A DNA stretch of 63,773 nt, counting the filler, from Hausera hauseri (Eukaryota): NCBI GenBank assembly GCA_046269625.1. It is 11 parts of 11 records of this genome, joined end to end, with 100 filler letters (N's around TTAATTAATTAA, not from the genome) between each part and the next. Parts side by side here need not be neighbours in the genome. Positions count along the whole stretch, not along the records: positions 48,105 to 63,773 come from JBJURY010399922.1; 10 more parts are not named here. One strand, 5' to 3'. Both the position numbers and the translations under genes were made by a program. The notes below the pieces were generated by a model, which saw only the letters and a program-made list of their open reading frames with translations, searched no databases and was not told where the DNA came from. Positions 13,279 to 63,773 of this stretch are shown piece after piece. Each line of letters opens with the position of its first letter. Position 1 is the stretch's first letter.

Positions 13279-14155
13279 GACCTTTCTCCATTTTGTCTTT
13301 CGCTTGCAAAAATTTACTTCTTGTTCAAAATTACTTCTGTATTCACCATCAACAATTATAAATGCATAAATCGCTAAAATATGAATTATTGTGAATGCTA
13401 AAGCTGAAAGTCGAATTTAAATGACCTTGAGAACTGTTCAACTGCTATCGAATGGCCCCGGCCATTTTTATGGGACCCGTTGGTACGAGTTCTCTCGTTT
13501 TGGTTTTGCCGAATTCTGAGATCTGAATAGAGAATGTCTGGNNNNNNNNNNNNNNNNNNNNNNNNNNNNNNNNNNNNNNNNNNNNTTAATTAATTAANNN
13601 NNNNNNNNNNNNNNNNNNNNNNNNNNNNNNNNNNNNNNNNNTTGATAAACTACGAAGTTAAAATTGAATGCCGAACCTTACACACTAATCCAATCATAAT
13701 TTTAAAAAACAGTAGAGAAATCGAATGTAAATCTTTGCGGCCGCAACACGATTATGTAATCCGAATTACTGCCAAGGGTTGAAGACCTGAAACTTTTACG
13801 GCGCGGACTCGTAACGACAAATCAAGAGCAACACGATATAAAGATCTTAGTACCCGTAATGTGCTTACCACAAAAGGGCCTAGTGAGGCGAATAGTTTAC
13901 CGATAATAACTATATTCGGTTTGTCAACTTTCGTTCTTGTCAGCGACGATTTTCTTAGTTTCCAAAAACTGCAATAAACAGCGCAAAAATCAACAGAGGG
14001 ATAAACGGGAAAAAGGGTACCGAGACGGGCTTTAAGATAGTATAACCTGACAATTACAGACCGGGTTATCCTATCATCAGACAGAGGAAGTGTTTTGGTT
14101 CAAAACGATGATATGTCTTAGAATTGACATTTATTTTTATTTTAGCAGAGTAAGT

Positions 14156-16516: not shown

Positions 16517-16582
16517 ACCGTCTACTCGGCACCTCTTCTGACGTAATTGGCACATTCGAGAGTGCCGTTCAGGGAGGAGAAA

Positions 16583-17170
16583 TGTTGTAAAAGTGGCAAG
16601 GAACGTTGTAGAAAGTGCAAGGAAATTTATAATAGAAACCGAAACCGAAAGTAAAACGGAATTTAACAAATAATTATTTAACCACAAATTACGTAACGAT
16701 TATTTAGTGCATGCAGTTATTTAATTTACAACGAATGTAAAAATTGTAAATCAGATAAATAAAGCAGATTAGGGCACACAAATTCCCTGTCGATGAACCG
16801 GACCGATATTTCCAAATTGTGGAGATTGACTTCGTATTATTTTTGTTGATTTCCGACTCTACGATTGTACGTACGGTATTTTTGTTATTGTAAATAAAAT
16901 TGTGTTCTTTCAAAATTCTTTATAGCTTTCCGTCGCTCCTTACGAGGGACTTATACCACATTAAGGATTAAAATTAAAAATAGTATCTATACTTAGGTCG
17001 AGAACTTGCTAAACTACGCAGAGCACAGCACACAGTACACGCATCATAAAACAGTACAAACATTCTAACGAGAACGTTAGGTCTTACCTGCTTATAAATT
17101 CTTGTTCAATTCGAGTTTCATTTATTGTTATAGTTGGGTGTTGAATAGGGCCCACCTTCAACTATTAACA
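16583..17170 (+). repeat. LTR (588 bp), PPT at 16571-16582, degenerate PBS at 17173-17190
   Basis: TGTTG...TAACA termini, preceded by AGGGAGGAGAAA and followed by TT-TAGCGATCCTAGCAGAAC. Confidence 0.85.
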
Positions 17171-18078
17171 TTTAGCGATCCTAGCAGAACAAGTTTGTAC
17201 TTGCTAGACTTTGACTTTTATTGAAAAGTAACGACACATTACCGATCAGCGCTATCACAGCAAATAATTGATTATAGAAGTGTTGGAAAATTAAAATTTG
17301 GGATTTATAGAAACTCTCGGTATTATAACGACATACTATTGAATCGAGAACGAATATTGACAGACATAAATCGGACGATAGTTTAAATTTAATTCCAAAC
17401 GGTAAAAAAATATTAACTTACTCAAAACACGCAAGAATATGTACAGACGGGATAAGACGTTGAATAAACGCACTCCATCTGAAACGAATTTAGCTAATAT
17501 TAAACTCATTAGTTTAAACGTTGTTGAACAGCCGATTGAAGTCAAAGTTCCTGTTAAGCGAATTAAAACTCGTAAGTTAATTAAGCATAATTTAATAGAC
17601 GTTGAAAACATGGTTGAGAATGAAGCTGTAGCGTAGAAGCTCGACATTTTTACATTTGACTCTCTAAATCTGCCGGCGTACGACGGAGATCCGGACGGAC
17701 TTCATGAGTTTTTGACAACCTATAAATTGCACGCAGAAGGTGCTGGACTCGCATCGAACGTAATTATTAAACGTTTGTCATTGTTACTGAAGAATTTGGC
17801 CGCTGATGCCTATAGTGAGCTCACTGATGATGAGAATAAATCTTGGTCCTTCCTGGTAGGAGCCTTAAATCGAAAACTATTACTGACAGTAACTCAGCAA
17901 CAGAAACTTATGGCTTTCCAGAATAGGGTGCAACAGAAGGGTGAATCGGTAACCCAGTTTGCATTCGCTTTTAGTTATGTGAACACTTAAAAATAGCCAA
18001 TATAGCTTAGGCTAAGAATGATGCGGAACACGAGGCTGCAGAAAATGCAAGTCCTCCAGACCTAGACGTCATGATGAT

Positions 18079-31717: not shown

Positions 31718-31728
31718 CATATATAAGC
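31718..31728 (+). promoter_or_regulatory. Candidate TATA box of the metallothionein-like gene
   Basis: TATATAAG about 40 nt upstream of an ATG with an A-rich context (TTTCAAAATG). Confidence 0.55.
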
Positions 31729-31760
31729 TGTTGAAAATCTGTTCAAATAACAATTTCAAA

Positions 31761-31856
31761 ATGTCTGACGAACAAAACCAAAAGTGCTGCGAATGCGAAT
31801 GCCAAGGTGAAGTTTGCAAGTGCGCCGAAGAATGCGAAGATTGCCCATGTCAATAA
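31761..31856 (+). CDS. Metallothionein-like peptide, 31 aa
   Basis: MSDEQNQKCCECECQGEVCKCAEECEDCPCQ*: 9 Cys in CC and CxC patterns, no aromatic residues, a GC-richer island in very AT-rich DNA. Confidence 0.78.
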   Translation: MSDEQNQKCCECECQGEVCKCAEECEDCPCQ

Positions 31857-33544: not shown

Positions 33545-36500
33545 ATAAACTTACAATCAGGATCAATTTGTCCTAATAATGAGGATAAACCCCCTAGTTA
33601 CAACAAAACAAACATCTGGTTAGGACATGTTGAGAAAATACCACCCAATTCTCAAATGGTTATACATGTTGGAACAATTTTCCCAGACAACCGTGTCATT
33701 GAATTTGTGCCGAATACTCTTTGAAGTGGGCTATTATTTCCACATTATTGCGTTAATGCAATTGGAGAAACTATTCCAGTAGAAGTTTTAAACCCAACCC
33801 CCAAATATGTCACGTTGTTCACAAAAGCAAAAATCGGACAAGCTTTTGAAACAACTCGTCGTGAGAATTACGATAACAAAGTCGCGACCGTCTCTACCAC
33901 GGAACAAGAAAATACCGAAGATATATTAAATGTCGTTCTCGCAAAAGCGAAGAAAAATCTATCAGATGAATATCTAAAAAATTTCCCAGATCTCATTTTT
34001 GAGTATCTTGATATTTTTGCAAAGAATGAAACAGATATCAGACAAACAGGAAAAGAAATAGATTTATTGCGACAACCTATACCAAAATGGTACTCTCCTG
34101 CAAAAGCACTCCAAAAGGAAGTTAAAGAACAAATTCAAGCTATGCTCGATAAAGGCATTATAGAACCAAGTCAATATCCATGGCCCTCTCCAAGAAGGCT
34201 AATACGACTAAACACCGTTTGTGTGTAAATTATGTTACCTTAAATAAGCACCTGATGAATCATGCTTATCCGATTCCTCGTATACGAGAGATTATAAACG
34301 AACTTAAGGACTGTAAATATTTTACCACTTTAGATTTACAAAGTGGATTTTGTCAAATTCCTGTGGCTGAAGAAGACCGATAGAAAACTGCATTCAACAC
34401 ACACACCGGAGTCTATAAATTCACTCGTATGCCATTTGGTTTAAAAACAGCACCCACATTCTTTCAAGAATTTATTCGCCTGGTGCTAAAAGGAGTACGA
34501 GGTTTATCATACATTGATGACATTCTCATTGCGTCCAAGATATGGTCTGCGCATTTAGCTGAATTGAAAGAAGTATTGGATCAAATTAGACTTGCGAAAT
34601 TAAAGTTAAATCCAAAAAAATGTGAATGGTGCAAGAAGGAAGTTAGATATCTTAAATTTGTTGTTTCTAAGCAAGGAATTTCGACTAGTTCTGATTTAAT
34701 ATCCAAAATTATGGAATATCCCCCACCAACAAATGTCCACGAAATGAAAGCTTGGCTAGGATTAGGAGGATTTTATGCTACATTTATACCTGACTTTGCG
34801 GAAATCAACCAGCCTCAATATAAACTGTTAAGAAAGGACCACAAATGGAAATGGACAAAAGAAAACCAAAATGCATTTGACGAGATCAAAAAACGAATGG
34901 TATTCGCACCTATATTGAGATACCCAGATTTTTCGTTACCATTCATTCTGAAAACCGATGCAAGCATAAAAGCAATTAGCTATATATTAGCCCAGCAAAG
35001 TCCAGAGGAAACAACCGAGCATGTAATCGCCTACAGAGGACGAAGTTTAAATAATGCAGAACGAAAATACTCAACCACTGAATTACAGTTATTAGCCATT
35101 CGCGATGGATTGCGACATTACGAGTATTATGTTTACGGTCATAAAATCATATTTACCGACCATAAGGCACTTTTATCTTTACGCTCCGACAATAGACATG
35201 TATCAAGTCGACTCCAAAGATGAAAGTTGAAGCTTTTAAATTATGACCTTGAATACCTATATCGTCCTGGCAAAGAAAACATGGATGACGACGCGCTTTC
35301 GAGAATCCCATATTATAAGATAGTAGCTGCAGTTTATAAACCATTAGATAATGAGAATGACAAATAACTAAATGAGAAAATCATTAATGATATGTTGCAA
35401 GAACAACGCCAAATTAAAGTAGGAAATATCGAGACCTTACAAAACCAAGATCCCTTTATTGTTCGAATCAAACAATTAATCAACGGACAATCAGTTGACT
35501 CAACATCGAACCATATTCAAAAATTTTATGAAAAGAACCGAGAAAATCCTGAGATCGAAAATGGCGTTTTACGACTAAGAGTCGGAGAAAGAAAACTGAT
35601 CCTTGTACGCACACCGGCCATCAAGGCTGTCATGCTACAGGAACACGATTCACACTTGGCTGGACATCCATCTTTAAACAATACCTTGAAGCGTATAACC
35701 GCAAAATATGACTGGCCTCAAATGAATAAAAATATTGAAGAATGGATAAGTTCGTGTAAAATATGTGCTACAAGAAAAGATAGAGGATCTCGTGTAAAAC
35801 CATTTTTAGGAAGCTTACCTGAAGCACGGAAGCCAATGGAAGTGTGAACAATGGATATCTCCGGACCCTTCTCAGCTTCAGACTCAGGATACAAATATAT
35901 ACTGTCCCTTGTTGACTACTATTCTCGCTACGTCAGACTGGTGCCATTAAAAACCATGACGAGTAGCACAGTTGCTAAAGCCTTTTTCTATAAAATTTTT
36001 GCTGTACTAGGCACCCCGAAACAGCTGCAAACTGACCGTGCACCATATTTTATCAGCGAATTTTTCGAAAAATTGTCAGAAATATTCCAGTGCAAACATT
36101 TGCTAACGACATCATACCATCCGCAATGTAACGGCATGGTTGAGAAAATGAACCGTATCATCCAAGGTATCCTCCCTACAAAGGTAGCAAATGATTAAAC
36201 CATTTGAAAACTACGTCCTTTGCAATTAACACTACGCCTGTCAAAAGTACCAATCATTCACCTTTTGAGATAATGTTTGGACGATTACCTTTACTACCAT
36301 TAGATACGGATTTACTACCATCATCCTTATTAACCAGTGATCACATGGATGACCAATACCAGATTTTGCTAAAACGACTTGAATACATTCAACGTGAAGC
36401 AAAAGTTTGAAGAAAAATACAGAGCCGGATATAAAAAGCAATTTAACAAGAAAGCACGACCACATACTTATAAGATTGGAGACTAATGGTTCATTACCCT

Positions 36501-36782
36501 GCAGCAAAGAAAGGCAAATCGTTAAAATTAACGCGTACAGGCCAAGGACCGTACAAAGTTGTTTATGTGCGTCCACAAACGCATTTCATTCAGAAAGGAC
36601 CTGATAAATACAAGACCATGTATGTTCAACGAGTAACTCGAGCGCCTACATCATATAACGACTTCATACGCGAAGCAGAGCTAGAATCGCCCAACACAGA
36701 AGAGCCCAAAGTAGCAGAACTATGCAAAACTTACTCGATGAATAACTCAGAATATTACTCATTTCATTTCATTCAGAGCTGA
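33545..36782 (+). mobile_element. Degenerate Ty3/Gypsy pol (RT-RNase H-integrase-GPY), related to the large element
   Basis: LDLQSGF, MPFGLKTAP, SYIDD, ILKTDAS, HDSHLAGH...CKIC, QTDR, YHPQCNGMVE and VHYPAAKKGKSLKLTRTGQGPY. Confidence 0.93.
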
Positions 36783-37700
36783 TACATGGCTATCCTTTCT
36801 TCATGCGTTTATCATGCCTATTACAACTGAAGGCATCAACCTAACGGTAGCACCACTTAATGTATTGGTTGAACGCACCACAATTATCAATGTTGATACA
36901 AATAAACCTAGTATTTGTCTTCGAACCCACTTGCCGGTAATAATACATCATAAAGTTGATTTTGTCTTCACATTACAATATAATGTCTTCTCAGTGTGCA
37001 CAATTCTTGAAGCACATAACGAAACTTCCTGTTCCGTCAATTACGAATCAACGTATACGTACTATGTAACACTGAAGGTCAATAATACCGATGCAATTCT
37101 TTGGCAGCCAAATATGACTTTTTCACGTTCCCACTCATCAAGCAATGAACATATTGAAAACTTCCGATGTATTTTCGCGCAATCCTTTTATCGCCTATTT
37201 CTTACAACATGATATTGAAATTTCTAGTATCGATCTTGTAAGACAACCACCTTGTATGAATTTCCGCACCACACAGTTATTACCCATCAAATTTGAGATC
37301 AGCATATGGATCGACCCTATCTCTACATCTATACAACAACCACATTATTGTTATCTTAAGCGGAATGATATTCGTTCATGCTGCACGCTCTATCCAGACA
37401 TCTAGTACAGAATCCGTTTAGATGCATATCAAACAATGGAAAATAGTCAATCCATTAGAGTGCATTCTCATCGCATTCCTATTTTATTTTCAGTTAAACC
37501 AAACATACATATTCCAGCCCTTGCCATGAAGCGCATTACTTCTCCGCGATCTACGAAACAGATGATAACACCGAAATTAGGCACTACACCCACCTATAAG
37601 GATAGGGGAGACCGAGACCAAGACCGAGACCAAGATCGAGATCGAAACCAAAATCAAAATCTCAAATGAAAGTCAAAAGTTCAGATTAAACCACAGAATC
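36760..37700 (+). pseudogene. Post-integrase accessory ORF-A homolog
   Basis: PISTSIQQPHYCYLKRNDIRSCCTL aligns with PLNTSIPKPGYCSLARRRITVCCVL of 48579-49487; followed by a T-rich segment and a GACCGAGACCAA-type repeat. Confidence 0.7.
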
Positions 37701-38569
37701 AGTATAAATACAGGATCAACGGCCATATACGTTGAAACAGAAATTACATAAACATGTATTTTATGGGAAATGGATGAAAGAATTTCCATATACAGACCGT
37801 GTTGAGATAATACTGTAAAACACAATGAATGAACGAAACATCATGGTAATATGTACAGGTTCTGACGAAAAAGTTATTATCAAGTACGAGACAAATAAAA
37901 AAATTCTGTAAAAAGNNNNNNNNNNNNNNNNNNNNNNNNNNNNNNNNNNNNNNNNNNNNTTAATTAATTAANNNNNNNNNNNNNNNNNNNNNNNNNNNNN
38001 NNNNNNNNNNNNNNNCGATGATTTTGAAATATCCGTCGTTTTCTCGGAGCTGTTCAGGCTGCGTCCGCTCTCCACGGCGTCCTCTTCAGTACTGACGGCT
38101 TTTACAGTGACGAACCACCATTATATAGGGTTTTTGTGGTGACGTCACTGGAGCTTCTGAACGCATCTTAAGCGCCATTAAGCGTTAATATCGTGTTACA
38201 CCAAGCAATGATTTTAATAAGATGGAAAGAATTTCAGTGACAACCATTATGTTTATTAAACATATGTAAACTGTCACCTAGACGCTGCTAACTGTGTATC
38301 ATAATATATTTTTACCCCACGTATACTACTACCATCTACTGACCAACACTTGTCTTTAGTTTTGTCCCTTAATTACTTGTTTAGATTAGAAATGTATAAT
38401 TTGTATTTATTATAAGCTGTTGTGTATTTATTGTACTGTTGTGTATTTTATTGTTTTGCACTTTTGTTTTATGTTGCACCATGATCTCTGAGGAACATTG
38501 ATTCGTTTCATTATGTACCTATATATAACTGAAATGAAAATGAAGACTCTCTGGCTCTGACCTTTTTTT

Positions 38570-48104: not shown

Positions 48105-48536
48105 TTCTTAGAAGGCACACAGTTCGCCATTAATACTACTCCACATCCTGCGACAGGATTCACTCCATTTTTTATGATGTAAAATAAAGAAGCTGTACTG
48201 CCTACAGATTTAGGATTGATTCCATATACAACTAGAAGGAAGGATTTAGAGCAGAATTTTATCGAAGTATTACAATCAAGATTTCACAAATGTTGGGAAA
48301 TAGCCAAAGAATTATCTAAAGAATACCAGGAACAATTCAAGAAGCAGTATGATAAAAAGGCTAAACCACACGATCTAGAACCCGAAAACTTGGTCTACGT
48401 ACACTATCCAGTAGCCAAGAAAGGCACGTCTCTTAAGCTTACTAGAACAGGTAGAGGACCTTATGAAGTTACTAAGGTTACACCAACCACAGTTTATATA
48501 AACAAAATTGGCACGGAAGAGGTCATATTAATTTAG
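48105..48536 (+). pseudogene. Integrase C-terminus with GPY motif (continues from 63119-63773)
   Basis: FAINTTPHPATGFTPF, KKQYDKK and TGRGPYEV. Confidence 0.9.
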
Positions 48537-48578
48537 AGAATAGTCGAAACGGAAATAAGGCCAAATAAACGCTATAAT

Positions 48579-49871
48579 TTGCCTTCAGGCAAAACAAATA
48601 AAGAAAAGAAAACGTCGTCGATAGTGACTAGACCAATATCGTATGTGCAAATAATCCTGGCCTTATCGTTAATCGCTTCGTATATACCCACAGTGAAATC
48701 CATCACTCAGACCGAAAAATGGAAGGATATCCAAAACTTACAGTCACTTAGAGTACGCGATATGGATTGGAGAAAACCATGTGCATGGTTTGAAGCAAGC
48801 GTACCTATTCGGAGCCGCGTAAAATTTCAAATAATATTTGTAACCAGGAAAACGATGAGAACGTGCGATTTTCCGTACGGAATTCATAGGAAATTCTGTA
48901 GTTTAGATTTTGGACAAACCTACGGATACGGATTTCAAATGTTTTATTTATATCAGTTCGGAGCTCAAGCCTACATAAGTACGGAGCTCTCAATAAGAGT
49001 GCCCCAACGAAAACACGATAATCAAGCGAAGACGGACGAAATAATTAGAAGCATTGATCCAGTTAAAAGGTTCTTAGACTACAACATTATTGGAATTCAC
49101 AAGGATTTGAAGAACCAATGTATTCGAATTGAGACCAAGATCGGACTACCAGAAGACAAGGAAATATCTGTACAATTTACACCATTGAACACTTCAATCC
49201 CTAAACCGGGATATTGTTCTTTGGCCAGACGACGAATTACGGTGTGCTGTGTACTGCTACTAGGACAGGAGTATCAGTTGCAATTCGATTTGTACAATAC
49301 GTATCTCGGAGAACCAAGTATCTATATAAAAGGATATCGTCCGAAAAACGGAATAAGGCAGCTTCCGTTTCCAACCACTACGAGACAACCGTCCACAGTT
49401 ACGAGCACAACTCTCACTACTACGATAACCACTTCAGACGAAATGCCAAGGGGCATACCTGTTAAGATCTTGGAAAAAAAGCGATAGGATTCTATTCTAC
49501 GCTGAAGAGACGTTAAATCGGGACGTCAAAACTGAATGTCGCACCCTGCACACCAACCAAGTTATGATTCTGAGAAAGAATAGTCAGAAAACTAAATGCA
49601 GGTCATTACAACCACAACACAACTATATAATCCGAATCACCGCAAAGGGTAAAACCCTAAAACCTTCACAGTCCGAACGCATGACGACAAAATCGAAGTA
49701 ATACAGTATAAAGATCTTAGCACTCAAAATGTGTTCACCAAGGAAGGTTTTACTGAGGAAAACAATTTACCGATAATAGCTATATTTAGTTTGTCAATTT
49801 CCGTTCTTGCTATATTAACGGCGATGATTTTTCTAGTTTCCAAAAATTGTAATAAGCGCAGTAAAAATTGA
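48579..49871 (+). CDS. Accessory ORF-A: type I membrane protein (signal peptide, Cys-containing FN3-like repeats, Thr-rich stalk, TM helix); disrupted after 49487
   Basis: YVQIILALSLIASYIPTVKS; LDFGQTY, LLLGQEY and SLQPQHNYIIRITA; TTTRQPSTVTSTTLTTTITT; TM IIAIFSLSISVLAILTAMIFLV (~49773-49838) then KNCNKR. Confidence 0.7.
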
Positions 49872-50032
49872 GAGGGAGATAAAAGGGAAAATGGGCACCA
49901 AGACGGACTCTATGATTGCATAAACTGACAAATACAGATGGGGTTATCCTATCATCAACAGAGAAAATGTTTTGTTTCAAAACGATGATCTGTCTTAGGA
50001 TTGACCTCTATTTTTATTTAAGCAGAGTAAGT

Positions 50033-52375
50033 ATGACCGAGAAGGCGAAAAATCCAGCAATCAGTTCCAATTACGATATCGATGATTTCCTCCAGCAGCA
50101 CGTCACTGTTCTTAAACCCCTGTCCAAAGGTCTATACCGACAAATTGGAGAAAACCTGAAGACTCAGAAATATTTAGAATTCGGCTAAGAGAGTAAAATA
50201 CCAAACGGACTAAAATGGGGCTTGGAAGAGAATCGACTGTTTCGATTATACGCCATGCGAAACCCAAAGGATGCACGGGCATACCTTTTAAGAGATGTAA
50301 TTCCCTATGAGCCGACACATCAGCAATTGTACGTACATGTCGCTAATGGAGAAATTCAATACAGGATCGTAGGACAAACCTGGTGTACGCAAAAAGGGCA
50401 GCAGTTGAAGTTTAGTTTTTATGCGCTATGTTGCTATAGTCTCATGAATTATGCCCTGAAATTTAGGATCGCAGATCTTCCGACCAAAATCATGATCGAA
50501 ATGACGTGGCGAACCGATGTAATGAAGCTGCTACCACCGTTATTATATGTACAAAAACCATCAGAAGATGAGATAGAGTAAAATGGAGAGTCCTACAGAT
50601 TAGTTCCAGACGGTAGGAACACCAGAATATTGGCCGTGAACTATGGAGAAATGGATGACGGGTGGTATGTTCCAATCGAGGTCTCTATTAGAAATACCAA
50701 TGGAGAAGAAATCATAAACAGAATAATTGCACCTCGAGCTAAGAAAAAGGACACTTTTCCCGACGTCACAGGAATTACAAAAGTACAGCTCAAAAAGGGA
50801 AAATATTTCTTGGAGATCCAAGAAAATATAAGCCATTGCTTATATGGATACGTCGTTACCGGATTCCGAGTTCACGAAGCGTTGGAGCGACTAGAAATTA
50901 GGCAAGAATACATAGCCGGAATTCGAGAAGTAAGCCGAAACCCAGCCGTTGTGAGCCAAGTAGAAAATACTTTGATGCGGAAAAGAGGTTGTCTGCTTTC
51001 TCCCTCAACATCTCGCGAATCACAATTTAAGATAATGATAGAAGCCATGAATGGCGAACGATTCAAATTCCCTAAGCTAATGACCGCAAGTCAACGGACC
51101 AAGTTTATAAAAGATATCTATGACTCAATACGATGGGACCACGAGTGGAAATCCAGAAACCACATGCAGAACGCAATATCCGAAAACAACCGCAAAATTC
51201 TGATACAAAAATTTCAAAAAGGGTTTAGTGAATACCCGAATTATCGGCAAATTGAACCACAAGGACATAACCAATTCCGAGTAACAATCCCTAATAATCC
51301 AATGGAAGTTCCAGACAGCCGACAGAAACCACTCACCAGAAAGTCTCGAAAAGAAATGACAGTAAAACCAGATTCAAGAAGACAAAAGACAAAGATGACT
51401 TTTTAGAATTTATTAGTAAAAAGAAGGACAAAATCAGTAAGAGTCAAATAGAAGAAATCAAATCAACAATAGACAGCTTAATCCAGGAAAGAAAAATGAG
51501 CGATCAGAGAGAAGCGTAGAATCAAGACAAAAACCACGGTAATCAAACGAAAATTCCCAAATCCAGAACCCTTAAAACGGAAGTCAACGTTATTCGGAAG
51601 AACTGGGAGGAAGATACCACGATTACAGGTACACAATTTGGCCAAGTGAAAGAATATAAACGAATCCTCGTCATGGCCGAATACTATAACAAAGGAAAAA
51701 TTAAAGAGGCTATATTTCATTTATCCACCGTCCCGAGAAGATTAGTGAGTGGAAACGGATATGCCAGAGAAGATCACACTATCGGCAGATACTTAGCCTC
51801 AATATTCCAATCAAAGAGCGGCACCAACAGACTAACAATTCCTGTGAATACCCAAGTCAGAATTCAGCTGAAAAGACAATACAAGAAGACTGGAATACCC
51901 GATTTGGACAAACAAGAAATAGTAGAATAGACCCTGGTTGCGGTATCCGACGATCCGAGAAAAAGCTCAATAGACCCCAATCAAAAGAGACTGTACGGAT
52001 ACTTATACCAAGACAGAAAAGGACTGGTATTCGAGAGAATAGAAGTGGACGAAAACCTAGTGGACATTGATGCCGCTGAAAAAGAAGAGTGTCCCGTCTG
52101 TGACGCGGATCTCTATCAAGGATTTGTAGTCCTAGACAACAAAGATTGCAATCACAAGTATTGTCGGTACTGCTTAAAAACGTGGACCCTGAAAAATGGG
52201 AAAACGACCTGCCCTGTATGAGAGCCGAGGCTACCAGACTAAGATACTATTCAAATGGAGAAAATAAAAAGATAGTAGAGATAAAACCCGAATAGGCCAC
52301 TACGTCCTATCATTTTGATTTGCAATCGCCGTCGAACGAAACGGATTCAGAAGCGGACTTACGCGGACGAATGAA
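50033..52375 (+). pseudogene. Accessory ORF-B, unknown N-terminal domains plus C3HC4 RING finger (52090-52221)
   Basis: Fragments 50033-50188, 50222-50581, 50630-51406 and 51646-51930, then CPVC-x15-CNHKYCRYC...CPV*. Confidence 0.78.
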
Positions 52376-52428
52376 CCAATTACGCGGCACCTCTTCTGAC
52401 GCAATGGGCACATCCGAGAGTGCCTTTC

Positions 52429-52440
52429 AGGGAGGAGAAA
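52429..52440 (+). promoter_or_regulatory. Polypurine tract
   Basis: AGGGAGGAGAAA abuts the LTR TG; identical at 16571-16582. Confidence 0.88.
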
Positions 52441-53151
52441 TGTTATAAATGACTATGAACAAATTGTAATTATGTACAGAACCGAAATGAAAGCGAAACT
52501 AGTGAAACTAGACTAATAAAACCACGATAAATCAATTGATTAACTATGAAATATCACAAAATGCCAGTTAGTAAATGTCAGGCGAATTTAATCAATAGAA
52601 ATGGCAGAAAATTCCAAAAAATGTATAAAATTAGGTAGCAACGACGCTATGTAAGTAGTCAACGTAATATATAAAGTTAGTTAATTATTGCCAGTGTAAT
52701 TAGTTAATCAGTCAGATACGAATTAGCAAATATTACTATCAGGCGAATTGTTCAGTTATTCCAAAATTTTGAAAGACTTGACGATTAAATCCGGTACATT
52801 GATTGCATTGTTGAAAATTACTAGTATTGCTGATCCGACATTCTCATTATCGGTGTGGTATTATTGTTGTTATTGAATAAACTATTATATCTTAAAAATT
52901 TCTATAGTTTTTCGTCACTCCTTACGAGGGACTTGCATCGTACTAAGTTCTAAAATCAAATTTTAAAATTTTTAGTTAGGTCGAGAAATTTGTAATTTAC
53001 GCAATCACTGCACGCAGTGCACACATCTTAAAATAGTGCAAACATGCTAACGAGAACGTTAGAACTTATCTGCTCAAATAACATTTAAATTTTGAAAATT
53101 ACTCATTGTTATAGTTGGGTGTTGGATAGGGTCAACCTTCAACTACTAACA
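52441..53151 (+). repeat. LTR (711 bp)
   Basis: TGTTA...TAACA inverted termini, TATAAAA near 52624, AATAAA near 52877; bounded by PPT and PBS. Confidence 0.88.
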
Positions 53152-53153
53152 TT

Positions 53154-53171
53154 TGGCGACCCTAGCAGGAC
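53154..53171 (+). promoter_or_regulatory. Primer binding site (probably tRNA-Arg)
   Basis: TGGCGACCCTAGCAGGAC lies 2 nt after the LTR; its complement TCCTGCTAGGGTCGCCA resembles tRNA-Arg 3' ends. Confidence 0.8.
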
Positions 53172-53588
53172 AGTTTGAACTTGCTAGTCTTGACTCTTAG
53201 TGAAAAGTAACGACATATTAGCGATTAGCGCTATAACATTAAATAATTGATTGCAGATTATTGTGAAATTAAAATTTGGGATTAGAAAGAAACCCTCCGT
53301 ATTATAACGACATATTATTGGGTCAAGACGGATATTGACGGACATAAGTTAGAGGATAACCTAAAACTCATTCTAAACGGTAAAGTGAATATTATTTTTC
53401 GTGAAACACGTAATAGAGTTTATAGAGAAGGTAAGACGTTGGGTACACGCACTTTACCCGAGTCAAATTTAGTTAATACCGAACTTATTGATTTAAACGC
53501 TGTTTAACAGCCTATTGAATTTAAAATTCCTGATAAGAAAGTTAGAACTCGTAGGATAATTAAGCAAAATCTAATAAACGGTGAGAAT

Positions 53589-54660
53589 ATGGTCGAAAAT
53601 CAAGCAGTAGCTCAAAAATTGGACACTTTTACATTCGACTCTCTGAATCTTCCGGCGTACGACGGAGACCGGGACGGACTTAACGAATTTCTAAGGACAT
53701 ATAAGTTGCATGCAGAAGGTGCTTGACTAGCAGCTAACGTGATGATTAAACGTTTGTCGTTATATTTAAAGAATTTGGCCGCTGATGCCTATAGTAAACT
53801 CATGGATGATAAAAGAAAACTTGTTCCTCACTGGTAGGAACCCTGAATCGAAAATTATTGCCGACTGTAACTCCGCAACAAAAACATATGACTTTTCAGC
53901 ATAGAGTACAACAAAATGGTGAATCAATAACCCAATTCGCTTTTGCATTAAAGAAATTGGCAAACAGTTACGTAAGCACTTTAAGAATAGCAAATATAGC
54001 TAAGGCTAAAAATGAAGCAGAACGCGAAGCCGCAGAAAAGGCAAGTCTCCCCGACATAGACGTCATGATGATGACACAATTAATAAATGGTATTTGGTCT
54101 AAAGACATAGTAAAGCAATTGATTCTAGCACGTCCCGAAAATTTTGATAGGACATTGCAATTAGCTCAAGACTTGGAAATGACATTGGATAGATATGCCA
54201 GAAACAATGACAGAAACGATAGAAATAATGATCAAGGTGATCGAAGCGATAAAAATCAAAATAATAGAAATGATAGACGATTTAATAAGAATTACGGAGA
54301 CCGAAACAAGAACGGTAATTAAATTCGCAGAAACGAGCGATATAGTAATCAGAATTTTGATAACAGTCGAAATAGTTTTTCTAATAAATCAAACTATACT
54401 ACGGATAAACGTATAGATGGCTCTAAAAATTTTAATCGACAAAGCGACAGTCGAAATTACGATAATCGACAATATGGAGATAATAGACAGGTCCGGCACA
54501 GCAGAACTACAATAGAAATCCGGGTAGATCGAAATCCCCGTTAAACGAAGATGACCGACAAAAGATCGGAAGAAATGGCAATTTTATTTGTTATACGTGC
54601 GGACAAGAAGGACACAGCGAGATCCTGTCCAAACCCGCGAAGCGTCTCGTTTGTTGAACC
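53589..54660 (+). pseudogene. gag with CCHC zinc knuckle (54589-54628)
   Basis: LPAYDGD..GLNEFL, RVQQNGESITQFAFALKKLA, QLINGI, an N/D/R-rich linker, and CYTCGQEGH/ARSC split by a frameshift. Confidence 0.85.
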
Positions 54661-55357
54661 TAGTAAAACTAATGCAATTAAAAACGAAAACTTTGAAGTA
54701 ATTTACGGTGTCCGTAGAGACACGGGTATGATCATCGAGATACAGGATTTACGACGTTTTTTAAAAGTCCAACCCTTTACTACAGACTTTAAAGTCTTAG
54801 TGGCCAGAAACGAGTATGAACACAAGTTACGACTATTAGAAGTTTATCACTGTCTGTGCGAACCAGAAACAGAATATGAACGTTTTATTGCCCGCCATGG
54901 CTTACTGATATGACACGAAAAAAGAACATTCCTAAGGCAAGCAACGGGTCAGACGAAACAGAAAATCCTGAGATACCGAAATAGGTAGATATAGATGTAG
55001 AAACCGAGTATACTATAAAAACGGTAATCACGGAGACAGAGGCCGACAAAAAAGAAGAATTTCTGGAACCGCTTATACTTAAAATTACCAAGGATAGAGG
55101 CCGTAGTCCATCATTGAGACGAAAATGCAAGGACCGATCGAGATCCCCAATGATAAGGGAAAAGTCAAGCACAAAGAGAGAAGCCGAGATCGCGCTAGAA
55201 AGCGACACAGAATGCGTCTTGAACATTCCGGAAATTGATCTAGTTACGCCAAGCGAAAAAAGGAGCTAACAAAATATATAAATGAAATAAACGAAGTATG
55301 TCCTCTACCCACTAGCGAAAAGGAAACAGAACAATAAGAGAAACTCGATCCTAAGAA

Positions 55358-57499
55358 TTGGAAAGTCAGACGCTCATGGAAAATGCTAATAAATTAAAAA
55401 GAATGAGGACCAACTGTCTAAACCCCGAAGTAGTACAACAGAATATAGAGAAACTTAAAGCAATGAGTGAACAAGTGGATATTTCGGGCAAAGAACAACA
55501 GTTTGTAGAGAGATTATATAAAAAGATAAACCTATATAATGAAGGGAAACTAAGCGAAGCCATAGACTTAGATCAGCCCAAAGAAGTGTCGAAGGGAACT
55601 TTATCTCAGTGGAAACACGAATTAGAACGCTGGAGCAAATGAAAGACAAAATTTCCGGAGACGTGAGATAAAGCTACCCAAGACATTGAAACTAGAGTTA
55701 ACCAAGCACAATCGCTACTAACTACATTAGAAGCCAACCCGAAACTAAAAAGAGTAGCACGTAATTGGAAGCGTATTATGAATGAAATTAGATTTGCGAT
55801 AGCCGAACAACTCAAGGGAAAGCCGGTCAAAGAATGAGATGCAAATGACCTAGAGATGTTGGGCATAGATTCAATAGACATTCCACCCTTGATGGAAATG
55901 ATGAAGGTCGCTTCGACAGCATCAAAGCAATATACAAGTTTGGAAAATCGTATTAGAATTGAAGCCGAAAAACGGTCGCAGATATATGGTTTAAGGAACA
56001 GAATTATGCACAACGGTAACGAGGAAACACATAAAATAATTATGGCTTGCATCCTCGAGTTTGATGAATACAAAGATGAGTTTGACTATGCCTACCGGAT
56101 CGTAGATTTTATTAAAGGCCCAGATGATGAGCTAGAAGATGCTCGTAACATGTTAAGCAAAGCAATATTGGCAAAGCCAGAAATCGCCAATCAGTTGAAT
56201 GAATGGTCCAAAGTAATAAGAAGGTTGAGTGCATTAATAAAGAATCGAAGAAGCGAATTCCCGGAAAGTGAACCTACAGTGAAGAAGCGTCTAAAAGAAG
56301 ATGCCCGAAATCTAGATACAATGAACGCAGAAATTGACATCCAAACCCAATTTGAGGCATTACGCCAATTGAACTTCATGGAAAAGAAACAAGAACTAAC
56401 GATACTAGATGATATCTATAAAATGATCGAGGAAACAAATTTCATGAGGAAACGGAATGCGACTTGCGATTTCTGTCCGCGATTGAGAGACGTCCGCTTA
56501 AAAGGGATACGATATTTGACGACTAAGCCTATCAAGGAAATCTCGATTCAAGATCTTAAAACTTTGGACTTTTGTCCCGAATATCGGTCTGTCGTCAAAG
56601 AAACGGTGCAGTTCTTGCATCACTCACAAAGATGGGCGGACGGAACAGATCAAAGGCATCATACTGAACTAATTAAAATAAAAAACGACCATCACCTCAG
56701 TTTCGAAGAGATCAAATTTGTAAAAAAATTATTAGATGCGATAGACCCAGATTCACTATTGATAGCAGAAATGGCAGAGATTAGTGACGAGAAGCTAAGA
56801 CAATTGCTGCAACAAATACAACAAGTTGAAGAAACTTGCATTAAGACGAAACAGACAGCAATGAGATTAGAGGAGTTAACTAGAGAACTCGAAGGCTATA
56901 AAAACAAGTACGCTCTTACAGAAGCAGAAAAAGCCGACAAGTCACAATTCGTGCAAAGGTGGCAAAAAGATGTCACGTCCGAACTGACGAAATATCAAGA
57001 AAAAGGGTTAATTTCACCGAAAGAACTATGTTCGATGTTAACACTGCTCCATCAAACGTCTAATAATGGACATTGTTTCCGAACGACAAAAATAGTTCAG
57101 TTGCTACAGAAACTACAAGAACTCAGAAAAATTACATGGACTGAAAGTGTGGATATGCCAACCGATACACCTTTAAGGGACTATCAACTGCCGAATAACG
57201 AGAATGAAACAGAATGGGAGGCATATTTGGATGCAATGATCGCTGAAAACCCGAAAACTCCCGTACGATTAAGCGAAGCAGAGGTATATTTTTCGGACCA
57301 AAGATTTAATGTGGGAATGCTACTAGACCCAATACAAACTGAGAAAGATTTAATTCAGTTGATCGAAGTAAACCTCACGGAAGTTCAATTAAGACAGTTG
57401 GTCCCTACTCTAACTAAATTAGCTAGCGAAGGTACGATATATAGTACGGTACCAAAACTTTTACTTAAGGAATATGCCAAAATATTGAAAACAAAATGA
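55358..57499 (+). CDS. Large helical/coiled-coil region of unknown function inside the element (547-aa open segment 55856-57499)
   Basis: Long E/K/L-rich ORF colinear with gag, with heptad-like stretches; no recognised motif. Confidence 0.7.
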
Positions 57500-58097
57500 G
57501 AAGAAAGAATTTCAGTAAAGATAGTAGCAGACTGGATGGTCGAGAAAGAACACGAGTTCACTACACACTTTCGTGTAAAAGATGTAATAGAGTGGATAAG
57601 AGATAATGGACCAGGAGTTAAATTACAGACTCTATTTTAGAGGAAGAATATTAGAGGAAACGGAACTGCTAATAGAGGTCGGCATTATTCCAGGTGAAGC
57701 ACACCGGATAGTTGTAACTATCCCTGTCGAAGAAACAAAGGAAGAAGCTATAAGAAAAGCTAAACAGAAACAGTGCGTAGGACGAATCATAGGAGTTCGA
57801 GATCCCGTAATGTATTTCGAGTACTTGCAGACAGATAGAGATGATGAACAATATGATAAGAATTTAGCACCCATAAACGGTAATGTACCTCCTATAACAA
57901 AACAGAGGCGTCCTGTCGGCAGACCACGGAAGTTACGAGAAGAAGTCGATTATAATGGAGACCTAATCAAAGAGTGGAGGCAAATGTCTATACCAACCTG
58001 CAATGCAAACAATGAGGAACTGAACGAACTTATGAAAAAATTGATACGTATAGTAAACCATTCTAGTTTCAGCAGCGATATATTAGATGAGAAATAG
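57500..58097 (+). CDS. Ubiquitin-like domain (~57509-57725, one frameshift) followed by an AT-hook
   Basis: ISVKIVAD...RVKDVIEWI / YRLYFRGRILEETELLIEVGI resembles ubiquitin [29 protein letters not shown] follows. Confidence 0.65.
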
Positions 58098-58448
58098 AAG
58101 GCCATATTTAATGCCGCCAAGGTTATGAAGAGTCTTCGATGTAAATTATCTAGAAGTACCTTGAGCAACGAAATGATAATCGAGAAAATTATGGTAGAAA
58201 ATACCATAGAAGAATTGAGAAAAGCGATGTTATATCTGGCCATTAAAACTAACCCAAACCGAGAAAACGAATTTAACAAGGCTACTACTTTGGCAAGGAA
58301 GGCTGCCAGGAAAATGCCTCGGGAAGTAAATTGGTCTAAGTTATTCAAAAAAGAAGAAGAACATCCAAGTGGATTTTTCTTCGATAACAATAAATTCGGA
58401 GATCTGTTACGAAACGTAACCGGAAACCGCACAGGAAACGAATCGAAC

Positions 58449-60633
58449 TGGCTAATTAACTTTTTGACCATGATGATGTTAATAAGGCAAATGAGCGCAG
58501 TTACAGTGTATGACTGCGACAAATTTAGACTTGGCCAGAAATACTCATTAATGGATTTAGAAATGTGGGAAGACACGAGACCCCACAAATTAGAAACAAA
58601 AGAAAGGAATTACGTAGAGGCAGGAAGATTAGACATGCACACCGGACACTGTCAAAGTGCAGAATACGATACCGGGAAAGGATTAGAGTCAAATGTCGTA
58701 GTAGTAGACTTTTATGAAACCGAAATGCGCGTACAGAAAGTGATGTTCCATAGTGTTACTAAACTTTATACTGAGAACCATAAATGTCACATTCAAGATG
58801 GCACATGCCCATTTCGAAGTTCCGTAGTAATTTGGGAACCCACAACTAAGTCTGATTGCAACTTTATCAGAATTAAAGAACTAAAATTTAACGAGACAAC
58901 GGGAAAACGGTACGTAAGTAGCACTGAAACTAATTCCAAAACACGAGAAGATGATCGCTGATACTCAGGGGCTTAAGTTTGTTAAGAAAGATGTATTCAC
59001 AAGATGCGATGTTATAATGTATGCTACTAACTATAAAGCATTTTTTGTGGCCGAGACGGAAATAAACGTCCGAACGTTTAAGCTCGAGACTCAAGACATC
59101 CGGATTGAGGATTACCTGAAAAACAGAGATGACTATTTCTATTATAAAGGACAGGCCGGAATAGCTAAATTGTACCACAAAATGATAAAGAATGACTGCA
59201 AGTTAGATTTAGAGGTTATGAGAACTAAGCTAGCCCTGATATATGTTAATCCTGAGTTGGCATCACCAATAATTCCGATGAACGAAGGTGTTTTTGGACG
59301 AGTAACCGGAGAGGTTTTATTGACGTATGAATGCGAAAAGAAAGACGTACCAATTAATGTAGAAGAGAAAAGGTGTATACAAGAGTTTCCAATGATATAC
59401 CAAGACGCACCAAGATTAGTAACCCCAATTACCAGAGTGTTGTTGGCAAATGCCACGCAACCGACAATTTTGAGAGATTGTAAGACTAGCTTAGGAGAGC
59501 CGATGTTCAGACGTAGCGAAACCGACTGGATAAGTTTACCGAATGGCGGTATTATCGCACTTCCTACCAAACTGACAGGAACAAATTTGATAAAAGGAAT
59601 AACCGATGATAAATTTCAAGATACAGCAGCAAAAGGTATTAACCGACAAAAAGAGGTAGAGGCATTTAGACAATTCCTCTCTTTTCCCCGCCAGCGTACA
59701 CATGAATTAAATAGAGCGATGCATACGATACTAGAAGACTCGCGCCACCAGGCGAAATGAGAGTCATTACTCGATGTTGGTTATTACAAGAAGGTAACTA
59801 CAGAAATATTGTACAAAATTTGGGGAAGATTCCTGATATTCGGACAGGCCGCGTCAGGGTTTCTAGCGATATACTTCTTAATTCAACTAGTAAAAGCCAT
59901 AATTCAAGCAATCATAAATGGATACGAGATATTCACCTTGACAGGATTTTCGCGTAAAATTTTAACGGCTATTATTACTCCCTTCGGCAAAGTCCTAAAG
60001 GCTTATGAAGAGGGTAAATGGAAAACAGATGTGAAGAGACATGTTGGCTACTATAACCGAAAGCGGAAAAGACGCATAATTAATTACAAGCAAAAATTCA
60101 TAGATAGTAAGACACGAAGAAATAATTCTGACGATGAGAAGCCTAAGGGAGGAGACGCCATCTCCAGATTGAACCGGCACAAAAATTACTCTATTATGAA
60201 ACTACTATTACCGATATTGCCGACAATGGTACCTATATATGAAGATTGCGAGAAACAATCTATAAGCTTATGCAAGACAGACGTCTATCAGAAACCATTT
60301 AACATAGAGGACCCCTATGAAGGAACAAAACGCTACGGGATATTGCGTAAGATCCGCGAAACAGAGAGAACGTTTATTCCTCATCGTCGCTGGGCAGTCG
60401 ACGATCACGGTGTGATGTATTCACCTAGAGTGCCTAAGCCAAACGAGACGCAAGCATTATTTTCCAGAAGCCGTGAGGTACACAATCTCCAGAACCAAGA
60501 TGTTAGGCTACCAATTCGAAATCAAGGAATGGAAAATACGATGAATACGAATAATGAATTATACCCCATTGGAGAACTAAGGCAATTAATCGAGCAACCA
60601 GTTGGAACCACTGAAGTTACCATAAACGATTAA
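58449..60633 (+). pseudogene. Envelope glycoprotein, chuvirus-G-like (probable class III fusogen), frameshifted
   Basis: Internal signal WLINFLTMMMLIRQMSA followed by VTVYDC; CHIQDGTC..VIW..C; GVFGRVTGEVLLTYEC.......CIQEFP; LVTPITRVL; C...PMF....W; pre-TM and TM IWGRFLIFGQAASGFLAIYFLIQLVKAII. Confidence 0.78.
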
Positions 60634-60636
60634 AAG

Positions 60637-63600
60637 ATGTCCACGGCACGGCGCCCCAAGACAGCACCAAGTTATTACGGTACAATAATCGAAGGTAGGC
60701 CCTTCGCAAAGATTCAATTAGAAGAATGGGAGGTTTACGCGCTAATAGATACAGGATCTGAAATATCACTAATAAAATACGATTCGATACCACAATTTCT
60801 ACGGAAACAACTGTATCCACCTCTTACGACAGACTCAGGAAGCACTGGAGCTTTCGGACAGTCATCGAAAAGTAAATTTCATTGGAAACCAGAAATTCAC
60901 ATAATGGGACAATGCTTCCGTCACGGATTTTTAGTAATGGAGCAATTAGCGGATCATGTAGTATTAGGGTGTGACTTGTTGAGGCAACTATTTAATATAG
61001 CAATCGATTTCAATGCAGACAAGTTAATAAAACTTGGTCCAATAAAAGGAGTTAAAACCACTGAAGACAGGAAATTTGGAGAAGTGCAGATTCCAGTGGA
61101 CGAAACCATACCACCCAGAACAGAAATTTTGATATATGCTCAGATACCTCAGGATGACGATCAGCCAATATATTTTGAACCAAAGGAATCGCTCGATCCA
61201 AACATCGTGCTCAGCAATGTCTTGACAAGATTATCAACAGGCCGCGCGCCAATCAGAATATCGAATAATGCGCCTACTCCAAACCAAACTGTACGCCAAT
61301 ACTACTCTAGGACACACGTGTAGAGTATTATCAATTACCATCGAGGAGAAACCGTATAAAGGCGCTGAGTTTCCGCCCCACGTCGAGACTATATTTTTAC
61401 CGGAATCCTATTGTCGATTCTACGAATTACTCTGCCGTTACAGCTTTATTATCGCTAAAGATAAAGAAGATATTGGCCGAGACAAGACCTTAAGGCTCAC
61501 AATTCCACTTAAAAAAAGCCTAGATCTAACGACGAAATAGACTTAGAGGATCAAAAGATGTCGAAATGGTATCCTCCTCCACACTCGTTACGGCCAGAAA
61601 TAACTAAGGAAGTTGAAGGAATGTTAAAGGCTGACATAATTAGACCAAGCTGTAGATCTTGGTATTCAGGTATCCTCATGGTTAAGAAGAAAGGTGCCAG
61701 TAAGCACAGATTCTGTATCAACTATCGAGCATTAAATACACGTATGATGAAGGACTCTTTTCCGTTACCATCAGTAAAGGAAGCTTTGGACAGACTGTCT
61801 GGAGCCAAATAGTTCACCACGCTTGATTTGCAAACTGGATATTGGCAAGTAGAAATAGAAGAGGAAGATCGTTACAAAACGGCATTTAAGACACATTACG
61901 GCATATATGAATTTAATGTTATGTCTTTTGGGAATCACTACTGGACCAGCCATTTTTACCCTTATGATGAAGAAAATGCTAATGCGACTAGAACACGCAT
62001 TTGCCAATTTGGACGATGTTATGATTGCATCGAAAACGGACGAGGATCATTTAAAGGACATTGAAGATACACTTATGAGACTAGAGCAGGCTGGACTGAA
62101 ACTGAATCCCAAGAAGTGCAAATGGGCTCAAAATGCTGTGTCGTACCTAGGACATACTGTAGGAGAAGGAGGATCAAAACCGGATAGATTACTATTGAGC
62201 AAAATATCGGACTGCATGGAACCTCAGAACCAGAAGGAGTTAAAACACTGGTTAGGGTTATGAAGATGTTATGCGACCTATGTACAAGATAATGCGAAGA
62301 TAAACGCACCTTTATATAGCTTATTAAAAAGGAATTAAATGGATATGGACCGATGTCTAACAAAAGGCTTTTGATGAAATGAAGAAAATTCTAACTAGCG
62401 AACCAGTTTTAAGATATCCTGATTTCAACCTGCCTTTCATAATCAAAACATACGCAAGTAGGGAAGGTATCGGATATGAATTAGCTCAAAAACGCGAAGA
62501 CGAGGAGCTAGAACACCCAAACGCATATGGAGGGTGTTTTCTAAAGAAAGCAGAAAAGAACTATTCTGTTACAGAGTTGGAAACGTTAGCGATGAAAGAA
62601 GCCCTGCGACATTTTAAAGTGTATGTCTATGGACAAAAGATCGTAATCGTTACTGATCATAAGGCAGTTACAACTTTAAAGGGTAGAGCAAATAATCCGA
62701 CCTGTAGACTTAACAGATGGATTGAGGAGATCTCACGTTACAATATTAAATTTCAGTACAAACACGGAAGTAAACATGTCGACGCTGATGCATTATCTAG
62801 ACTTAGAACTAAAACGAGCACCGTTACGATAATGAAGAAGGCTCACCTTGAAGGTCTGGTAGAGAGACAACGGACTCTTGTGTTAGATAAAGCATTAAGG
62901 ATTTCTGTCGAACAAAAGAAGGATAGAGTGATACAACAGATTATTGAGTTCGCGAGCACCGGCAAAATGCCACAAGGCCACCAATTGCGAAAACATCTAA
63001 GAAAATATGGCAACAAATACTGCTTAACGGGAGATTCGAGTCACGAAAATGTGTTATACTATGAGCGAAAAGGACGGAAATTAGTCGTCATGCCGAAAGA
63101 TTACGTACAGAAGTACTCATGGCGGAACATGATTCATACTTAGCCGGATACATGTCGTGGAAAAAGACATTGGAAAGGATATTAAATAAGTATTATTGGC
63201 AATGCATTTATATCGACGTAAGGAATTGGGTGAATACTTACGAAGTATGCGCAACCGAACAGAGAAAGGTGAAGAGTTACATTGCCGAACTTAAGCCCAT
63301 TGACGTGCCCGATAGACCAATGCAAGCAATGTTTATGAATATTGTAGGACCCTTGCATACAACCCACAAGAATGATAAATACATACTGACCTGTGTAGAT
63401 CGATTGACTCATTTCGTTAAACTTATAGCATTATTAGACCAAAAGGCCGAGGCCTTGGCAGAAGCGGTAGTCTGGAAAATCATTTGCAGATACGGGCCAC
63501 CCGAACAAATATTGACAGATCGAGGAAAAAACTTTACGAGCGAATTGTTTGAGAAAATTACCAAGAATTTTGAGATTGAACGATTAACTACCACAGCTTA

Positions 63601-63773
63601 CCATCCCCAATGTAACGGAATGGTCGGGCGGATGAACGTGACCGTTATACGGATCTTATCCACAGTAGTCGCAAAGACCAGAAAGATTGGAATGAATTCT
63701 TAGAAGGCACACAGTTCGCCATTAATACTACTCCACATCCTGCGACAGGATTCACTCCATTTTTTATGATGTA
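60637..63773 (+). pseudogene. pol: aspartic protease, RT, RNase H and integrase (stops and frameshifts)
   Basis: ALIDTGS, RFCINYRALN, LDLQTGYWQ, NLDD, YSVTELETLA, VTDHKA, ADALSR, LTDRG and YHPQCNGMV. Confidence 0.95.

Follow-up and report, generated by a model that had tools for sequence, protein, structure and literature searches.

The window analyzed here, a 63,773-nt stretch of the Hausera hauseri assembly, ends in a contig (48105-63773; JBJURY010399922.1) that is one 15,592-nt unit (~15.6 kb) with ends identical over 77 nt and one long terminal repeat (LTR). The end join falls within the integrase, and the integrase of relatives aligns across it at consecutive positions by tblastn. Because the contig is closed with one LTR, neither a second LTR nor a target-site duplication can be seen; with two LTRs, the element measures ~16.3 kb. 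Read from the LTR, its parts are Gag, a helical region, a putative ubiquitin-like domain (Ubl), an AT-hook, a glycoprotein, protease (PR), reverse transcriptase (RT), RNase H (RH), integrase (IN), a second membrane protein, and ORF2. An initial annotation had described this contig as a single 15.6-kb unit joining a Gypsy core to a chuvirus-like glycoprotein, a ubiquitin-like domain, an AT-hook, a large helical region, a second membrane protein, and a RING ORF; every part was recovered where it had been placed, with uneven support. The window holds a second closed contig of the same type. The features of the unit, followed by its relatives in the window, are as follows.

48105..48181 (+), 77-nt end repeat identical to 63697-63773; the join lies within the integrase
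48105..48536 (+), integrase C-terminal part, broken (tblastn with P0014, P0017, and P0166, E 1e-15 to 1e-20)
48537..49871 (+), broken frame of the second membrane protein, continuing that of the integrase (hydropathy, homologue, dN/dS)
48636-48701, its signal-like segment (hydropathy; hydrophobic signal at 48651)
48768-49010 and 49110-49350, its two Cys-containing repeats
49374-49436, its Thr-rich stalk
49483-49698, its third FN3-like domain
49764-49835, its transmembrane (TM) segment, then a short tail (hydropathy; TM at 49773)
49916..52448 (+), ORF2 (~840 codons; broken), with an N-terminal part of no assigned family, a DEDDh-nuclease-like part starting at 50582, a linker, the RING, and a tail
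52087..52218 (+), C3HC4-type RING finger with a disrupted end (Pfam zf-RING_2, E 4.4e-7, above the curated cut-off; dN/dS 0.04)
52430..52440 (+), polypurine tract (sequence; same tract in the sister contig)
52441..53151 (+), single 711-bp LTR, TG...CA, 5-bp inverted ends (sequence comparison)
53154..53171 (+), primer-binding site (sequence)
53589..54700 (+), Gag, one degenerate CCHC knuckle near 54589 (zf-CCHC, E 8e-4; P0018, E 7e-7; dN/dS 0.08-0.09)
54700..57499 (+), charged, helical cargo matching no known family, with one open stretch of 553 codons
57500..57725 (+), putative ubiquitin-like domain, split by a frame change (weak matches)
57906..57932 (+), AT-hook, one motif (motif search)
58443..60633 (+), gB/Monjiviricetes-class fusion glycoprotein, broken: internal signal-like segment, TM at ~59836-59920, cytosolic tail
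60694..60990 (+), aspartic protease, catalytic motif present (Pfam RVP, E 3e-7)
61000..61300 (+), beta-rich PR-RT intersegment (weak alignment to P0163 and P0166; dUTPase-like by position only)
61540..63773 (+), RT, RNase H, integrase zinc finger and core, broken (Pfam; RT catalytic motif degenerate)
13642..18078 (+), sister-subfamily fragment in contig 13642-18591: FN3-like tail, TM, ORF2, polypurine tract, LTR, primer-binding site, gag
33725..37560 (+), distant relative in contig 33545-37915: RT-RH-IN, then a homologue of the second membrane protein

The unit is assigned to Ty3/gypsy by a TG...CA LTR with a polypurine tract before it and a tRNA-type primer-binding site after it, and by the pol order PR-RT-RH-IN (Pfam, E 3e-7 to 2e-28), which bears out the proposed Gypsy core. 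The primer-binding site may match tRNA-Arg. Within the LTR, the interior stretch 52470-52877 is unique to this copy. Troyka was considered and excluded, having CG termini in the available text of PMC12440569 where TG...CA is found here. In a tree of unnamed proteins only, the RT shares a long branch, separate from the rest, with that of the second element of the window (33545-37915) and falls outside a 98/97 clade of six env-pol proteins. The suggestion of a complex retrovirus-like member of the Metaviridae holds as a complex enveloped-type Ty3/gypsy element. Pfam gave no match for the PR-RT intersegment, and an Rfam search returned none.

This copy is dead. Its coding regions are interrupted at least 39 times, by stops or by changes of frame. 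The minimum density of these breaks is 1.4-3.6 per kb and alike in every coding part (gag, cargo, env, pol, tail, and ORF2), whereas the LTR plus leader has 14 per kb and shuffled sequences have at least 8. This low, even density relative to both controls, together with the natural relatives P0018, P0022, and P0026, which run gag-env-protease without a break, underlies our reading of a single frame. Related contigs fill 30 of 30 bins of the unit in both sequencing runs compared, and neither internal repeats nor non-coding gaps were seen across it. The unit is a decayed copy from a multi-copy Ty3/gypsy family, and the two halves of its contig may derive from two neighbouring copies.

The two related elements claimed for the window were both found: the sister fragment, collinear at 73-77% nucleotide identity, and contig 33545-37915, whose homologue of the second membrane protein follows the integrase (E 1e-12). 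In the coding frame, dN/dS of the 3' cargo is 0.04-0.23, comparable to gag; positions 54072-63773, which have no close paralogue in the window, lie outside this measurement. Among the controls, one frame of the 3' untranslated stretch is also low (0.20), a value we attribute to the tail of ORF2; for the LTR plus leader, one frame gives 0.59. The 3' cargo (second membrane protein and ORF2/RING) is under purifying selection. The collinear sister copy, this selection, and the equal density of breaks in cargo and pol argue that the cargo is native, in keeping with the earlier view of one element rather than nested insertions.

Support for the parts downstream of Gag is graded. The helical region has Pfam matches of coiled-coil type, all weak. 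For the Ubl, the matches are likewise weak, with E 0.05 to Pfam ubiquitin and a domain E of 0.006 to relative P0014; all four PDB matches are ubiquitin-like, though at E 0.19-0.37. The AT-hook motif recurs in 2 of 11 relatives. A Bcl-2 reading of the helical stretch before the env drew no support from sequence-level tests, with no match in Pfam or to the Bcl-2-like stretch of P0013/P0020. PDB sequence searches returned nothing useful for the Ubl-to-env stretch or for the env.

The glycoprotein matches PF24664 (Monjiviricetes_fusion) at E 3.7e-42, which confirms its chuvirus-like character, and sits before the protease, between gag and PR. It has an internal gap and is ~80 residues shorter than in relatives near 58610; its TM segment was found by hydropathy, and its signal-like segment aligns with relatives but lies below the hydropathy cut-off. 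A word-indexed protein search with the env matched none of 6,082 candidates, a weak blank because the same method missed env relatives found by HMMER. In the env tree, polyprotein-embedded envs form a clade (support 100) apart from 41 stand-alone glycoproteins of 600-730 aa. The env here groups with the embedded forms and not with the stand-alone ones. The chuvirus-glycoprotein elements of mosquitoes are of the Pao/BEL type, another superfamily. What is shared with these mosquito LTR elements, in the available text of PMC7642597 and PMC10084718, is the glycoprotein class.

The second membrane protein was also correctly anticipated. Its ectodomain reaches an Atlas FN3 score of 0.81, a lead only, and Pfam fn3 E 0.08-0.11; its dN/dS is 0.14 and 0.23. 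Env-pol polyproteins extending >250 residues past the integrase (the unbroken database proteins P0014, P0017, P0028, P0163, and P0166) show a signal-like segment followed by a TM in five of five cases at a looser hydropathy cut-off and in four at a stricter one. None of 12 ordinary gypsy Pol proteins has this pair of segments, though only one has a comparably long tail, and relative P0164 stops at the integrase end. Profiles of the relatives' tails gave no significant match to the window tail, and a profile of their FN3-like core scored 6.9 bits against the window domain versus 5.8-13.9 in shuffled controls, which leaves layout and a short motif as the basis for tail homology with these relatives.

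ORF2 modifies the earlier call of a RING ORF: the RING is present but is the C-terminal part of a larger broken frame rather than free-standing. Its tail runs through the polypurine tract into the LTR, and its breaks fall at different positions in the two copies, between which dN is ~0.15 and dS near or at saturation. The nuclease-like part scores 0.88-0.91 in the Atlas, to RNase_T and arenavirus NP exonuclease clusters, with no match in Pfam or PDB; the word-indexed search with ORF2 matched 0 of 3,354 candidates, again a weak blank for a method that missed known env relatives. Single-sequence AlphaFold models of ORF2 (pLDDT 36) and of the second membrane protein (pLDDT 33) are too low to judge either fold, and the nuclease and FN3 labels are therefore leads only. 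In both copies the first DEDDh motif departs from the canonical form. ORF2 differs from ORF3 of the bdelloid elements Juno/Vesta in this non-canonical first motif, in lying beside an env, and in being joined to a RING. There, a DEDDy ORF3 with catalytic residues shown replaces env, and the shared feature is a DEDD-family nuclease(-like) ORF downstream of pol (available text of PMC5408684).

Much of the overall plan is published. The objection that a described family shows the same plan, raised with the initial proposal, applies in part, and an undescribed architecture is not supported. In the available text of PMC6431247, planarian Burro/GYPSM1 encodes one polyprotein (Gag, coiled-coil, Ubi/SUMO-like, mononegavirus-like env, PR, dUTPase-like, RT, RH, IN) together with a RING-type motif and accessory ORFs, with proposed meddling in host ubiquitination. 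GAG-ENV-POL errantiviruses of HSV/gB type are catalogued in Platyhelminthes, Nematoda, and Bryozoa (Smed 1-6, Pcro 1-2, Mlig 2; PMC13524379), which also dates the premise of a single F-type env after pol. Like them, with listed spans of 12-18 kb, our element is multi-copy and places a gB-type env between gag and pol, its ectodomain flanked by a signal-like segment and a TM; their intact, uninterrupted ORFs were an inclusion rule, against the many breaks here, a difference of copy and not of family. The main text of that paper has 0 mentions of fibronectin, RING, ubiquitin, exonuclease, or Burro, and describes the way in which elements with gB enter cells as unknown, since herpesvirus gB depends on partner glycoproteins. 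The architecture is thus described in its general plan; a second membrane protein after the integrase and a nuclease-like-RING ORF were not found in the literature searched. The element is largely a variant of the published plan.

We hold the structural reading of the element with high confidence, and consider its best explanation, a dead GAG-ENV-POL Ty3/gypsy copy whose active forms likely made a polyprotein with two membrane proteins and a separate RING protein, to be probable. From the observed gene order, decay, collinearity, and 3'-cargo selection, we infer the following cycle for such forms. LTR-driven RNA would be translated in one frame that starts with Gag and spans ~3,950 codons up to the final TM segment, and two internal signal sequences would thread the chain twice through the ER membrane, leaving Gag, cargo, and Pol cytosolic and both ectodomains lumenal. 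Signal peptidase would release both ectodomain N termini, and the element's protease would release Gag and Pol. Particles would bud carrying both membrane proteins and move between cells. A two-protein entry role, in which the gB-class protein is predicted to fuse membranes and the FN3-like protein to attach, is a tentative proposal from sequence. Equally tentative is a counter-defence role for ORF2, as a RING ubiquitin ligase with a catalytically altered nuclease-like domain as its binding adaptor.

A competing account, possible although we doubt it, makes the copy a small decayed member of the Burro family, in which the extra ORFs would also be present but never annotated. The order Gag, coiled-coil, Ubl, env, PR, dUTPase-like, RT appears to fit both in the available text of PMC6431247 (with a weak Ubl and a dUTPase-like segment by position only here); ahead of their env, relatives have pieces that are Ubl-like, AT-hook, and Bcl-2-like; and this env resembles the Smed_errantivirus_1/2 rows by eye, with no exact match of motifs from those rows in the closest relative proteins. 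Burro is nonetheless twice the size (>30 kb in total, internal part up to 25 kb, vs. ~16.3 kb), the element here has a 0.7-kb LTR, one CCHC knuckle, and no Pfam match to MATH, BIR, ankyrin, or BCL2-like domains in the segments scanned, and the available Burro text names no post-integrase membrane protein or nuclease-like ORF (PMC6431247). The RT also lies outside the env-pol clade, Burro being compared by description only.

It is somewhat unlikely that the element is intracellular, its membrane proteins anchoring assembly or promoting cell-to-cell contact by FN3-like adhesion with no free virion. The combination of FN3 domains and a Thr-rich stalk is characteristic of adhesion proteins, and the Atlas clusters nearest the second membrane protein are animal FN3 proteins. 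Env-less cell-to-cell transmission is reported in Drosophila (available text of PMC11952523). Against this, the class III fusion-protein match is kept in all close relatives, most simply for fusion. A chimeric assembly, or insertions stacked within one another, is very improbable. In its favour, the contig is closed with 77-nt identical ends, no single related contig spans the whole stretch, and a second closed contig lies in the window; against it, the sister contig is collinear over tail, ORF2, LTR, and gag, the integrase-to-tail order recurs on the separate contig 33545-37915, the env-pol-tail order recurs in five unbroken proteins, and gaps and internal repeats are absent.

In its fullest form, that reading becomes a two-glycoprotein entry machine (gB fusogen plus FN3-like receptor binder) within a Gag-Pol polyprotein that crosses the ER twice, plus a pseudonuclease-RING ligase that captures and destroys a host anti-transposon factor. 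This conjunction is unlikely as a whole; if true, the machine would provide elements with gB with the partner for attachment that they seem to be missing. The second membrane protein, which lies where env usually does and is maintained by selection, is a concrete candidate for the partner of gB, and ORF2 is a candidate counter-defence ligase. With this copy, the pattern extends to a compact, RT-divergent family, and the layout is therefore not limited to one clade.

The last of the window's eleven eukaryotic contigs, which are joined by N spacers, occupies 48105–63773 in its entirety (15,669 nt), and its first 77 nt are identical to its last 77 nt. The contig join falls within the integrase: alignments of relatives run through 63667–63771 and then 48123–48500 at consecutive positions. 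Read across this join, the contig holds the following, among which are all the parts that the initial annotation had listed:

52430–52440: polypurine tract, directly before the LTR
52441–53151: single LTR, 711 bp, TG...CA
after the LTR, ahead of Gag: primer-binding site
53589: start of Gag
zf-CCHC (Pfam E 8e-4)
between Gag and env: charged and helical coding stretch of 2.8 kb without known family
between Gag and env: ubiquitin-like domain, weakly supported
between Gag and env: AT-hook
preceding the protease: Monjiviricetes_fusion glycoprotein (Pfam E 3.7e-42)
protease, RT, RNase H, integrase and RING: Pfam matches
3′ of integrase, in its frame: second membrane protein (the tail), with a signal-like segment, two Cys-containing repeats, a Thr-rich stalk, a third FN3-like domain and a TM segment
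about 49916–52448: ORF2, after the tail

The frame past the RING (52222–52448) shows codon-position bias and a dN/dS of 0.20; it crosses the polypurine tract and stops just inside the LTR.

The contig is one element, now dead. Decay was measured as the minimum number of breaks (stops or frame changes) that each region requires, with the LTR plus leader and 50 shuffles per region as controls. By this measure gag and the tail require 4 each, the helical cargo and pol 9 each, env 3, the ubiquitin-like region 2, and ORF2 8. Coding regions thus come to 1.4–3.6 breaks per kb, whereas the LTR plus leader has 14, and the shuffles gave far more breaks than the real coding regions. In the short ubiquitin-like region the reverse strand is no less open than the forward strand, and env lacks ~80 residues near 58610 compared with relatives.

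A sister copy at 13642–18078 is collinear with the element, at 73–77% identity across tail, ORF2, LTR, and gag; it breaks off sharply within gag, and 18078–18591 is unrelated sequence. Between these two copies, whose comparison reaches the element outside 54072–63773, dN/dS was 0.14 for the FN3-like domain, 0.23 for stalk plus TM, 0.08 for the N-terminal half of ORF2, 0.07 for pre-RING plus RING (RING alone, 0.04), and 0.08–0.09 for gag; the nuclease-like part of ORF2 gave dN 0.15 with saturated dS. Off-frame controls ranged from 0.67 to 3.5, with a single exception at 0.35. In sequencing run X1, 26,214 contigs match the element, most 85–95% alike and covering 30/30 bins, and run X2 also covers 30/30 bins; summed depth in these runs does not equal copy number, and X1 is possibly the source sample.

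The closed ends would be produced equally by a head-to-tail tandem—an arrangement known already (PMC5932611)—by a collapsed local duplication, or by a circle, so the two halves of the contig may derive from adjacent copies. The more distant relative at 33545–37915 gives independent evidence of the integrase-to-tail order (E 1e-12). A single run-X1 contig covers 52640–52741, at depth 21, like exact internal pieces (15–23), which puts the count near one LTR per unit; among run-X1 contigs, no twin with ≥88% identity occurs. Related contigs are nearly absent over the LTR interior (52470–52877) and many over its flanks, and against the sister contig this interior gives a poor alignment (57% over 256/391 nt). 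The interior is private to each copy (52470–52877; 16622–16879), whereas the family as a whole shares the 3′ third of the LTR and a short cap at its 5′ end. Another contig, 28442–33444 (5,003 nt, ~27% GC), also has identical 77-nt ends. Two host genes lie elsewhere in the window: at 5170–7433 a ubiquitin-specific protease (Pfam UCH E 6e-35), at 12194–12643 (−) a RING/U-box-like ORF. A fragment of another gypsy RNase H is at 26700–27270 (−).

HMMER returned 277 env relatives at E ≤ 0.001, the best at 30–36% identity and mostly long unnamed env–pol polyproteins. In a tree of the window env and 79 of 150 listed matches (≥440 aa, 180 aligned residues), it sits in a 15-row clade (support 100) containing all 10 polyproteins, and 41 stand-alone glycoproteins fall apart from that clade. 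The label "chuvirus-like" thus fits the class of protein, although its closest relatives are envs of retroelements. In an RT/RNase H tree of 10/12 pol matches (without P0004 and P0011), 8 env–pol proteins, and both window elements with breaks as X, the window elements pair on long branches (100/99), outside a six-member env–pol clade (98/97).

Several relatives have distinctive features. P0014 (HBK71150.1), an env–pol–tail polyprotein labelled hypothetical protein in a Flavobacteriaceae MAG, is probably animal sequence that was binned as bacterial. P0163, P0017, P0015, and P0022 carry several aspartic-protease copies, some 3′ of integrase; ankyrin and C2H2 motifs are further features of P0163. 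P0013 (by eye) and P0020 (Pfam E 1e-3) carry a Bcl-2-like stretch immediately 5′ of env, as in Burro.

A signal-to-TM ending recurs in 5/5 env–pol proteins running well past integrase (4/5 at a stricter cut-off). Four of these five tails share a two-Cys FN3-like motif, present in 5/168 fetched proteins, one a near-duplicate; against a profile of the four tails, the window's FN3-like domain did not score above shuffled controls. For ORF2, Atlas similarity leads place 50582–51403 near RNase_T and arenavirus nucleoprotein exonuclease clusters (0.88–0.91; top three matches unnamed), and Pfam, PDB, and folding gave no confirmation of a nuclease. Its first motif departs in both copies from the canonical form. 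A single putative ORF fusing a nuclease-like part to the RING fits, since the breaks of one copy do not coincide with those of the other.

The architecture had been proposed as undescribed, a claim that is supported only in part. PMC6431247 gives Burro/GYPSM1 nearly the same plan, PMC13524379 catalogues gB-type GAG–ENV–POL elements, and PMC5408684 describes a DEDDy ORF3; for the second membrane protein and ORF2, however, we found no published description in the literature consulted, and Repbase, GyDB, Sacco 2022, Grohme 2018, figures, and bioRxiv supplements may annotate these extra ORFs. The element resembles Burro—whose BURRO1 is PIWI-controlled (PMC8532177)—in its enveloped-gypsy way of working, but it does not match Burro in size or in domain content. 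Beyond the demonstrated gene order, decay, and selection, we infer a mechanism in which a single polyprotein of ~3,950 codons would pass the ER membrane twice via two internal signals and be cleaved by signal peptidase and the element's own protease; P0018, P0022, and P0026 are unbroken natural gag–env–protease proteins. The gB protein would serve fusion and the FN3-like protein attachment, and ORF2 may act as a RING ligase equipped with a binding adaptor.
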